Virus record (IMG/VR): IMGVR_UViG_3300029499_000043
Strand: one strand, 5' to 3'
Length of the DNA stretch: 4,982 nucleotides
DNA from: a virus
Taxonomy: Duplodnaviria; Heunggongvirae; Uroviricota; Caudoviricetes
The position numbers were made by a program, and so were the translations under genes. Below are positions 3,057 through 4,982 of this stretch, piece after piece (position 1 is the first letter of the stretch; every line of letters starts with the position of its first letter). Under the pieces are notes generated by a model that was given only the letters and a program-made list of their open reading frames with translations, was not told where the DNA came from and did no database searches.

Positions 3057-3632
3057 ATGGATTTCGACACAATCATGGAAAAGGCTTACGAAGAATACTT
3101 CGAAGGCCTTGCCGAAGGCGAAGAAGCTCTCAGCTTCAGTGAGTTTAAACAGGCACTCAGAATAAGAATGCGCTCTCACAATGACGCGGAGCACAAATAT
3201 GAGAAGCAAAATCAGACCGCAGAAAATTTTGTTCTGGAACCCGGAGAAACGCTTTTCAAAATTCCCGTTACGTGCCCCATTTGCGGTTTTACATCAGAAG
3301 AACTTGACGACTCCTGTAACAATCAGGAAACAACCAAGTATGTCGAAGATGATACCGAGTGCGCACGAAGAACGATTATATCCACGAGTCCAAACTCCAG
3401 GACCAATAAATCTCACTTTGAGAGGGTGATTAATCCACTCCCCCAAACCAATAAAAAAGATGCCGGAGGACAAAAAAACCAATGGAACAACGGGATATCT
3501 GTCAAAAAAAGACGTTCCATTAAAGACAAACAACGCAGCGCCAACAACTGTAAGCGCTTTATACCAGTAATCAATTTTCATGTTCTTAAGCGGATTTATT
3601 GGTGGTTGCGACATTGCTTAATGAATCCTTAA
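3057..3632 (+). CDS. ydfB/ydfC-like early gene(s). One uninterrupted frame from ATG 3057 (MDFDTIMEKAYEEYFEGLAEGEEAL...) with a second in-frame ATG at 3168 (MRSHNDAEHKYEKQ...). The true 3' extent is uncertain: the C-terminal 80 codons are K/N/R-rich low complexity over A-tracts.
   Basis: Shine-Dalgarno AGGTG 6 nt upstream of ATG 3057. The start is 1 nt after the ydfA stop, which suggests coupling. In K-12 this region is annotated as two small genes (ydfB, ydfC), as far as I recall. Here no stop occurs until 3630..3632. The tail contains poly-A runs at 3453..3458, 3472..3478 and 3504..3510. Confidence 0.5.
   Translation: MDFDTIMEKAYEEYFEGLAEGEEALSFSEFKQALRIRMRSHNDAEHKYEKQNQTAENFVLEPGETLFKIPVTCPICGFTSEELDDSCNNQETTKYVEDDTECARRTIISTSPNSRTNKSHFERVINPLPQTNKKDAGGQKNQWNNGISVKKRRSIKDKQRSANNCKRFIPVINFHVLKRIYWWLRHCLMNP
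3294..3614 (-). CDS. Candidate small membrane protein, 106 aa, with three predicted hydrophobic helices, antisense to the 3' part of the ydfB/C-like frame. Possibly a superinfection-exclusion or holin-like protein; possibly an artefact.
   Basis: ATG at 3614..3612 with AAGGA about 11 nt upstream on the minus strand. Hydrophobic segments are ALTVVGAALFVF, VVPLVFLSSGIFFIGLGEWI and ALGIIFDILGCFLIVTGVV. Caveat: an antisense reading of lysine/asparagine-rich A-tracts automatically yields Phe/Leu-rich hydrophobic stretches. Confidence 0.3.
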   Translation of the reverse strand: MSQPPINPLKNMKIDYWYKALTVVGAALFVFNGTSFFDRYPVVPLVFLSSGIFFIGLGEWINHPLKVRFIGPGVWTRGYNRSSCALGIIFDILGCFLIVTGVVKFF

Positions 3633-3891
3633 AACTGTGGTGATTTTAAGGATACCACCTCGCCTGACGTGGTTAAAAGCAGGCACACAACACGAAAGCG
3701 CACGGCGAAGTTCGTCTCACTGTACGGTGTCGTCAAATTTAATTCGACCGTGCGCTTCCGGTTGTGGCAACCCGCGAAATGGCGCGGCGGTAAGTATGGC
3801 GGGGTTATTCCTTCCCCGTTGAGGACACCGAGTTGTCAGGTTGACCATACGCTTAAGCGACAACCCCGCTGCAACGCCCTCTGTTATCAAT

Positions 3892-3949
3892 TTTCTGGTG
3901 ACGTTTGGCGGTATCAGTTTTACTCCGTGACTGCTCTGCCGCCGTTTTT
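3892..3949 (+). ncRNA. dicF: DicF small regulatory RNA (Hfq-dependent antisense inhibitor of ftsZ translation), including its intrinsic terminator: stem GGCGG 3907..3911 with CCGCC 3939..3943, then T-tract 3945..3949.
   Basis: The sequence TTTCTGGTGACGTTTGGCGGTATCAGTTTTACTCCGTGACTGCTCTGCCGCC followed by TTTTT matches the roughly 53-nt DicF RNA as I recall it, almost base for base. It lies in an ORF-free stretch immediately upstream of dicB, as in Qin. Confidence 0.85.
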
Positions 3950-4118
3950 AAAGTGAATTTTGTGATGCGGTGAATGCGGCTAAGCGCACGCGGAACAGTT
4001 AAAACCAAAAACAGTGTTATGGGTGGATTCTCTGTATCCGGCGTTAATTGTTAACTGGTTAACGTCACCTGGAGGCACCAGGCACTGCATCACAAAATTC
4101 ATTGTTGAGGACGCGATA

Positions 4119-4307
4119 ATGAAAACGTTATTACCAAACGTTAATACGTCTGAAGGTTGTTTTGAAATTGGTGTCACTATCAGTAACCCTGTATTTACTG
4201 AAGATGCCATTAACAAGAGAAAACAAGAACGGGAGCTATTAAATAAAATATGCATTGTTTCAATGCTGGCTCGTTTACGTCTGATGCCAAAAGGATGTGC
4301 ACAATGA
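4119..4307 (+). CDS. dicB: DicB cell-division inhibitor (acts with MinC on FtsZ), 62 aa (MKTLLPNVNTSEGCFEIGVTISNPVFTEDAINKRKQERELLNKICIVSMLARLRLMPKGCAQ).
   Basis: Strong Shine-Dalgarno GAGGA at 4107..4111, 7 nt upstream of ATG 4119. The 62-aa length and sequence match my recollection of DicB. Located downstream of DicF. Confidence 0.9.
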   Translation: MKTLLPNVNTSEGCFEIGVTISNPVFTEDAINKRKQERELLNKICIVSMLARLRLMPKGCAQ

Positions 4308-4495
4308 ATTCAGCATTTGCGCTTGTTCTGACAGTTTTTCTTGTTTCCGGAGAGCCAGTTGATATTGCAGTCAGTGTTCACAGGACAATGCAGGAGTGTA
4401 TGACTGCAGCAACCGAACAGAAAATTCCCGGTAACTGTTACCCGGTCGATAAAGTTATTCACCAGTATAATATCGAAATCCCGGCAGGTCTTTAA
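4304..4495 (+). CDS. ydfD: YdfD, a small prophage lysis protein with a hydrophobic N-terminus, 63 aa (MNSAFALVLTVFLVSGEPVDIAVSVHRTMQECMTAATEQKIPGNCYPVDKVIHQYNIEIPAGL).
   Basis: ATG 4304..4306 overlaps the dicB stop TGA 4305..4307 (ATGA overlap). Shine-Dalgarno AAGGA at 4291..4295. The 63-aa size and sequence match my recollection of YdfD. The track ORF 4250..4495 is an N-terminally extended version of the same frame. Confidence 0.85.
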   Translation: MNSAFALVLTVFLVSGEPVDIAVSVHRTMQECMTAATEQKIPGNCYPVDKVIHQYNIEIPAGL

Positions 4496-4588
4496 AACAG
4501 TTCCGTAATAAATATCCGGTTTCATTCTTATATGCCAGCAATGGCAGGGATTTGTTCATCCTTAAATCTGTCATGAGGTTAAAACAAA

Positions 4589-4982
4589 ATGAGTAAAGTC
4601 TTTATTTGCGCCGCTATTCCTGACGAACTGGCAACAAGGGAAGAAGGCGCTGTGGCTGTAGCCACAGCCATTGAAGCTGGCGACGAACGCCGTGCTCGAG
4701 CAAAATTTCACTGGCAATTCCTGGAACATTATCCGGCTGCTCAGGACTGCGCTTATAAATTTATTGTCTGCGAGGATAAACCTGGCATACCCCGCCCTGC
4801 CCTCGATTCATGGGATGCTGAATATATGCAGGAAAACCGCTGGGATGAGGAGTCTGCTTCTTTTGTCCCGGTTGAGACTGAATCCGATCCGATGAACGTC
4901 ACTTTTGACAAGCTGGCCCCTGAAGTACAGAACGCTGTCATGGTTAAGTTCGACACATGTGAAAACATCACCGTTGATATGG
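4589..4982 (+). CDS. ydfE: YdfE-like acidic protein, 3'-partial: 131 codons to the window edge with no stop (MSKVFICAAIPDELATREEGAVAVATAIEAGDERRARAKFHWQFLEHY...). Possibly the N-terminal region of a RecE-type exonuclease-family protein.
   Basis: ATG 4589 with Shine-Dalgarno GAGG at 4575..4578 (about 10 nt upstream). The open frame runs to 4981 without a stop, so it is absent from the supplied ORF track. Position after ydfD as in Qin. Identity from recollection only. Confidence 0.7.
   Translation, partial: MSKVFICAAIPDELATREEGAVAVATAIEAGDERRARAKFHWQFLEHYPAAQDCAYKFIVCEDKPGIPRPALDSWDAEYMQENRWDEESASFVPVETESDPMNVTFDKLAPEVQNAVMVKFDTCENITVDM

Follow-up and report, generated by a model that had tools for sequence, protein, structure and literature searches.

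The stretch of DNA analysed here, a window of 4,982 nt, was found at 100% identity within a lambdoid prophage adjoining rspB in Escherichia coli CFSAN061770. In this species some 11,500 places were matched, and close copies are present in 4,763 of the 5,426 complete genomes. The prophage is of the Qin type, and the window is its immunity and early-left region. This region includes a Cro/DicC-like gene and a gene for a DicA-like HTH repressor, with divergent transcription, and the gene order ydfA (encoding a DUF1391 protein), an open reading frame (ORF) of 191 aa, the DicF small RNA, dicB, ydfD and the start of an exonuclease gene (Table 1). The early-left (dicBF) operon, which is repressed by DicA, ends with dicB and ydfD as its final two cistrons. 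A ydfABC-dicFB-ydfD transcript of 1,608 nt, and nothing longer, has been seen (Ragunathan et al. 2023), and dicB and ydfD are thus on one mRNA. The weak terminator-like hairpin past ydfD fits the end of this published transcript after ydfD, and no promoter-like sites were found on the + strand between positions 3850 and 4700.

The 191-aa ORF (3057-3632, + strand) lies between ydfA and DicF, where it stands in for the ydfB and ydfC genes of K-12, and begins 1 nt past the ydfA stop codon; a search of Pfam and NCBIfam returned no match for it. A 106-aa antisense ORF with a hydrophobic-looking product is located within it (3294-3614, - strand).

Table 1 Features of the dicB-ydfD region, numbered from the first nucleotide of the window.
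Feature	Position	Strand	Details
DicF small RNA	3893..3944	+	Rfam RF00039, 72.5 bits (gathering score 48), E 3.8e-15; same operon, upstream of dicB
Shine-Dalgarno sequence of dicB, GAGGA	4107..4111	+	7 nt 5' of the dicB ATG; anti-Shine-Dalgarno duplex -5.9 kcal/mol
dicB, 62 aa + TGA, cell-division inhibitor	4119..4307	+	ATG 4119-4121, TGA 4305-4307
Predicted mRNA hairpin	4262..4317	+	3' arm with the GGA of the ydfD Shine-Dalgarno sequence, AUG and UGA; in minimum free energy (MFE) and centroid folds, 101-nt and 501-nt contexts
Shine-Dalgarno sequence of ydfD, AAGGA	4291..4295	+	in dicB codons K59-G60; spacer to the ydfD ATG 8 nt
ATGA, ydfD start (4304-4306) over dicB stop (4305-4307)	4304..4307	+	read from the sequence
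ydfD, 63 aa + TAA, DUF1482 'lysis protein'	4304..4495	+	ATG 4304-4306, TAA 4493-4495
Weak terminator-like hairpin with T-rich tail	4533..4556	+	consensus scan; 38 nt past the ydfD stop
Exonuclease (RecE/exo VIII-like) gene, 5' part	4589..4982	+	RefSeq annotation of the identical locus; 93 nt after ydfD, without overlap

The product of dicB matched Pfam family PF05358 (136.8 bits, cutoff 27, E 1.9e-40) and NCBIfam family NF049927 (132.8 bits, cutoff 100, E 2.8e-39), in both cases over residues 1-62 of 62, and is identical to DicB of K-12. YdfD matched PF07358 (DUF1482) over its full length (90 bits, cutoff 25, E 9e-26) and phrog_1092 (E 1.2e-35), and is named 'lysis protein YdfD' in the RefSeq annotation of the identical locus. 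Over the dicB-ydfD stretch 374 of 377 nt are identical to K-12, and YdfD differs from its K-12 counterpart in two residues, listed as A6V and Y55D, the window copy having Tyr55 and K-12 having Asp55. The pair therefore closely resembles that of the Qin cryptic prophage of K-12 (b1575/b1576), with which it shares the same DicB, the ATGA overlap, the Shine-Dalgarno sequence and the upstream DicF. Unlike K-12 Qin, the prophage of the window is more complete, is next to rspB and has an intact exonuclease gene, xis and int downstream; it also differs in the 191-aa ORF that replaces ydfB/ydfC and in the D55Y change of YdfD.

At codon 55 (window 4466-4468) the local sequence is HQYNIEIP, whereas K-12 and most relatives have HQDNIEIP; the Tyr55 variant is common to 13 of 267 loci. 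[quoted passage not shown]

The start of dicB was predicted to lie within a hairpin at window positions 4098-4123 (UUCAUUGUUG / CGAUAAUGAA), with the GAGGA in the loop and the AUG paired. Opening this start takes much energy, and the amount scarcely varies (mean 11.6, sd 1.1 kcal/mol over 120 haplotypes); such uniformity in the modelled values hints that translation of dicB is under a conserved restraint. The reading frame of dicB is open from a GTG at 4014, in agreement with the 'in-phase internal start' to which the title of Cam et al. 1988 refers.

The AAGGA preceding ydfD forms an anti-Shine-Dalgarno duplex of -6.0 kcal/mol, on a par with the duplexes of dicB (-5.9 kcal/mol) and of the exonuclease gene (-6.3 kcal/mol), and a site as strong or stronger precedes only 6.2% of the + strand positions of the window. 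The original prediction had placed the ydfD start codon over the dicB stop codon, with a Shine-Dalgarno sequence inside the 3' end of dicB, and it proved exact in its coordinates, in the ATGA overlap and in the Shine-Dalgarno position, the RefSeq annotation giving the same geometry. Indeed, RefSeq records this 4-nt overlap for the genome that matches the window at 100% as well as for K-12 MG1655 (dicB 1649609-1649797, ydfD 1649794-1649985), and a 'partial overlap' of dicB and ydfD was remarked on by Lu et al. 2022; the overlap is thus already known.

The ATG at 4304 is the true start of ydfD, being the sole start common to all loci compared. Two other starts were considered and rejected. In 42 loci an in-frame stop codon is found no more than 27 nt before the 4304 start, which excludes the ATG at 4250 that some gene callers choose to give an 81-aa YdfD; the other candidate, an ATG at 4295, is missing from many haplotypes.

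As a bare feature the 4-nt overlap is no more than would be expected by chance and is ordinary in such phages. Phage Tritos, which has the same DicF-dicB-ydfD-exo module, was found to have -4 overlaps at seven of its 48 co-directional junctions and an overlap of any length at 14 of 48, and the share of overlapping pairs among co-directional genes has been put at about 15% for most groups of prokaryotes (Huber et al. 2019). Nonetheless, the arrangement at this junction is strongly conserved in a set of 267 loci in which DicB is 55-100% and YdfD 65-100% identical to the window proteins. In every one of the 267, dicB lies directly 5' of ydfD. A distance of -4 between stop and start is seen in 229 loci (ATGA in 228 and GTGA in one) and one of +2 in 37 (TGA-CA-ATG), while one locus has a one-base frameshift by which both ORFs are fused. 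The 2-nt gap of TGA-CA-ATG is due to a TGG-to-TGA change that makes DicB three residues shorter.

Among the 52 distinct junction haplotypes, an AAAAGGA block (-15 to -9) and the motif CAATGAA (-2 to +4) were nearly invariant, the six spacer positions from -8 to -3 were hypervariable, with 11-22 minor haplotypes each, and the last two or three residues of DicB changed freely. Conservation of the ATGA is partly 'free', as the conserved Met-Asn start of YdfD dictates the TGA that is read in the frame of dicB. A further argument for the Shine-Dalgarno sequence, from synonymous sites, was discarded: the third position of GGA is invariant in 51 of 52 haplotypes, but so are 9 of 17 nearby third positions. 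Since the neighbours are equally invariant and the set is closely related, this invariance was not counted as independent evidence, and a better argument is the recurrence of the motif behind unrelated upstream ORFs, described below.

A natural DicB-YdfD fusion was encountered in one locus (L017:2810-3192), where a 1-nt deletion in the spacer causes a frameshift. The 108-aa frameshift fusion protein of DicB and YdfD (P0096) has both Pfam domains.

Distant relatives are more informative than the close set. Twenty INPHARED records encode DicB, and in 20 of 20 it adjoins a DUF1482 gene with shared-base geometry. In PPompW phages and phage 204576, in which YdfD is 39-50% identical, the junction is GTGA and the Shine-Dalgarno sequence GGAGA. 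Eight other INPHARED phages, namely six Klebsiella phages, Salmonella phage SW-37 and Citrobacter phage Omnitron, have a genuine DUF1482 gene (65-69 bits against the Pfam model, same PHROG) and neither DicB nor DicF. The upstream partner differs by host: it is DicB in Escherichia, a 37-aa ORF of phrog_22279 in the Klebsiella phages and a 66-aa ORF of phrog_3722 in the Salmonella and Citrobacter phages. In Klebsiella phage ST974-OXA48phi18.2 (L273:2391-2692) the 37-aa ORF is joined to the DUF1482 gene by an ATGA overlap with the Shine-Dalgarno sequence AAAGGAG, and in SW-37 and Omnitron (L274, L275:2262-2698) the unrelated 66-aa ORF is joined by TGATG with GGGGA. The possibility that the 37-aa ORF is a diverged DicB was rejected, as it gave no BLASTP alignment and belongs to a different PHROG. 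Both small ORFs are uncharacterised and occupy the place of DicB upstream of DUF1482.

A Shine-Dalgarno-like motif of -5.3 kcal/mol or lower was present in eight of eight junction lineages, those with unrelated upstream ORFs included, compared with 11% of random positions. Because they are kept behind unrelated ORFs, the overlap and the internal Shine-Dalgarno sequence are a general trait of DUF1482 genes in phage early operons rather than of the partnership with DicB. This retention of overlap and Shine-Dalgarno sequence, whichever of three unrelated kinds of small ORF lies upstream, is, as read from the phage sequences, mildly new. The two families are not obligatory partners: a DUF1482 gene follows wherever DicB is encoded, but DUF1482 occurs without DicB in the eight phages and as yebW. 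This chromosomal paralog (L280:4122-4313, K-12) stands by itself 104 nt past yebV (DUF1480) and abuts the convergent pphA, with neither dicB nor an overlap at the K-12 locus.

In 185,579 species genomes, scanned with two search patterns whose reach does not extend to YebW-like relatives, the YdfD-type subfamily was found at six loci, all in Escherichia or Shigella except for one probable contaminant of a metagenome-assembled genome (MAG); the subfamily thus appears essentially limited to these two genera. The exceptional locus (L270) is on contig JAGZPX010000007.1 of a Veillonella parvula MAG, has an E. coli-type dicB-ydfD pair with a YdfD identity of 87%, and its presence in a Veillonella bin is almost certainly binning contamination.

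It seems probable that ydfD is translationally coupled to dicB by termination-reinitiation, which by analogy with tested gene pairs is the most likely behaviour of this junction. Coupling was judged likely because of the 4-nt overlap geometry and because 13 of 14 overlapping pairs tested, five of the pairs from E. coli, were strictly coupled (Huber et al. 2019). Coupling requires an overlap or a very short gap (Huber et al. 2023) and is lost once the gap reaches about 20 nt, the contributions of the Shine-Dalgarno sequence being variable (Huber et al.); here both genes are on the same strand, and all but one of the 267 loci have a stop/start distance of -4 or +2. A ribosome ending at the dicB UGA would already sit on the ydfD AUG and could re-initiate there with the aid of the Shine-Dalgarno sequence, and a substantial share of YdfD synthesis would then depend on DicB synthesis and follow it. 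The pair is like the ATGA/TGATG coupled pairs of Huber et al. (2019, 2023) in being co-directional, with a -4 overlap and a Shine-Dalgarno sequence inside the upstream ORF. However, subunits of heteromeric complexes in which a fixed stoichiometry is required were over-represented among those pairs, whereas DicB and YdfD are not known to form a complex and their coupling is an expectation drawn from the likeness.

The ATGA might instead be incidental, reflecting the usual tight packing of lambdoid genomes, with ydfD translated mainly de novo from its own Shine-Dalgarno sequence and the overlap devoid of regulatory meaning; this we regard as doubtful. De novo initiation at ydfD is possible, as its Shine-Dalgarno sequence is of normal strength, matching those of dicB and the exonuclease gene, and ideally spaced, and no special mRNA structure was found at the ydfD start. 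Overlaps are common in phage Tritos and genome-wide, as given above, but overlapping pairs have almost always proved to be coupled in experiments, whatever the evolutionary cause of the overlap. Likewise, the TGA is set automatically by the Met-Asn codons of ydfD, and the overlap proper has been lost in the 37 loci with TGA-CA-ATG; yet none of 266 loci has a stop/start distance greater than +2 nt, even though the spacer is hypervariable and the C-terminus of DicB varies, and DUF1482 genes keep the stop/start overlap behind unrelated upstream ORFs too.

A different question is whether dicB and ydfD form a genuine toxin/antidote (addiction-like) module, in which DicB would be a dedicated antidote neutralising YdfD and coupling would set their ratio. 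An order with the antidote upstream, the toxin downstream and a 4-nt overlap resembles many type II toxin-antitoxin loci; as in such operons, the two genes are small and adjacent and the first product counteracts the second, and in Escherichia prophages dicB and ydfD are always adjacent. Overexpression of YdfD lyses E. coli and co-expression of DicB prevents this (Masuda 2016, as related by Lu et al. 2022 and a 2024 preprint), and by these accounts the original prediction was correct in taking YdfD for a lysis protein offset by DicB. However, SulA, an unrelated division inhibitor, rescues equally (Lu et al. 2022). Since SulA also rescues, the rescue by DicB is probably indirect, and lysis would simply need ongoing division; the effect would be exerted via blocked division and not by binding. 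For the K-12 YdfD, both lytic activity and binding to IspG have been shown, lysis being reported to act by way of IspG (Lu et al. 2022).

The supposed antidote is, moreover, itself highly toxic. The native operon under Plac is extremely toxic and deletion of dicB largely relieves this toxicity, while a strain without dicF and dicB, in which ydfD is still present, grows and looks like wild type (Balasubramanian 2016). Most of the toxicity seen on induction is therefore due to DicB, and the loss of dicB lessens it rather than freeing lysis. The non-lytic behaviour of the dicB deletion is the opposite of what the loss of an antidote should cause, and it fits strict coupling, by which YdfD would not be made when dicB is not translated. 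It is equally explained by low expression of the operon, as DicF too was undetectable from the construct. The primers published in 2019 for a dicB deletion remove the dicB ATG and keep the last 29 nt of dicB, and with them the Shine-Dalgarno sequence and ATG of ydfD; reconstruction of the scar allele gave a residual ORF of seven codons that ends at the native UGA. Because of this residual ORF, the published deletion is suggestive only and provides no clean test of coupling.

Several other observations set the pair apart from type II operons. Neither a labile antidote nor autoregulation is in evidence, the operon being repressed by DicA; DUF1482 proteins occur without DicB, with other partners in the eight phages and alone as yebW; and a comparison of DicB and YdfD with the PADLOC defence models gave no match at E <= 0.1. 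Taken with the rescue by SulA and the toxicity of DicB, these points make a neutralising module very unlikely, and they do not support the tight stoichiometric coupling and toxin/antidote-style module that had been proposed for this pair from the sequence. The coupling interpretation as such is reasonable by analogy; its stoichiometric toxin/antidote form is not supported.

As for the role of YdfD, phages with the dicB-ydfD module also carry their own holin/endolysin (S/endolysin) cassette, and for this reason YdfD is probably not the lysis device of the phage. More plausibly it would be an early modulator of host metabolism, its 'lysis' being an overexpression phenotype. In the termination-reinitiation reading preferred here, YdfD, which binds IspG, would lyse dividing cells only, and coupling would ensure that it is rarely made without DicB, whose inhibition of division would indirectly mask lysis. 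The junction would thus let a compact phage operon express two host-takeover proteins together and in order; these would not be a neutralising toxin-antitoxin pair, and no fixed stoichiometry would be needed.

A precedent for the gating of a lysis gene is found in the coat-lysis junction of phages MS2 and fr, where the lysis gene depends on translation or termination of the upstream cistron. Like it, ydfD encodes a phage single-gene lysis protein behind an upstream cistron, and it would be gated in a comparable manner. In MS2 the overlap is -50 or -38 nt, RNA unfolding or ribosome scanning operates and the lysis gene is without a good ribosome-binding site (RBS) of its own, unlike the 4-nt overlap and conserved Shine-Dalgarno sequence of dicB-ydfD.

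No conserved RBS-sequestering structure was found at the ydfD start by folding, comparison with shuffled sequences, comparison of haplotypes or calculation of accessibility, and the hairpin predicted at 4262-4317 is probably neither conserved nor functional. That this hairpin locks the ydfD Shine-Dalgarno sequence and AUG until a ribosome translating dicB opens it is highly improbable: the GGA, AUG and UGA are indeed paired with dicB codons 48-55 in both the MFE and centroid structures, but the hairpin is not more stable than shuffled sequence (z-score +0.39), its shape is not conserved over 55 junction haplotypes and its energies there are ordinary (-8 to -21 kcal/mol), opening the ydfD RBS costs 11.1 kcal/mol, which corresponds to the 47th percentile for positions along this mRNA, and the cost is higher than at the dicB start in no more than 32 of 120 haplotypes.

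Extended to the whole family, termination-reinitiation coupling leads to a broader proposal, which we consider unlikely. In enterobacterial lambdoid phages, DUF1482 proteins would obligatorily be products of a 'second cistron', always translated via a stop/start overlap with a varying small upstream host-takeover ORF; the partners other than DicB would be undescribed functional analogues of it, for example division inhibitors, by which lysis as a side effect of inhibiting IspG is masked, and the real role of YdfD would be in early metabolic takeover, not lysis. The three kinds of upstream ORF suggest, at low probability, such a systematic gating of DUF1482 genes by a variable upstream partner.

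The gene pair, its overlap and the antagonism of DicB and YdfD are all already in the literature and the reference annotation, so that the practical value of the analysis is modest and no new category is opened by it. If ydfD depends on translation of dicB, dicB deletion alleles may silence ydfD too, and phenotypes attributed to DicB could be compound. If the coupling is true, it would also explain how a 'lysis protein' can be encoded in an early operon without premature killing of the host.
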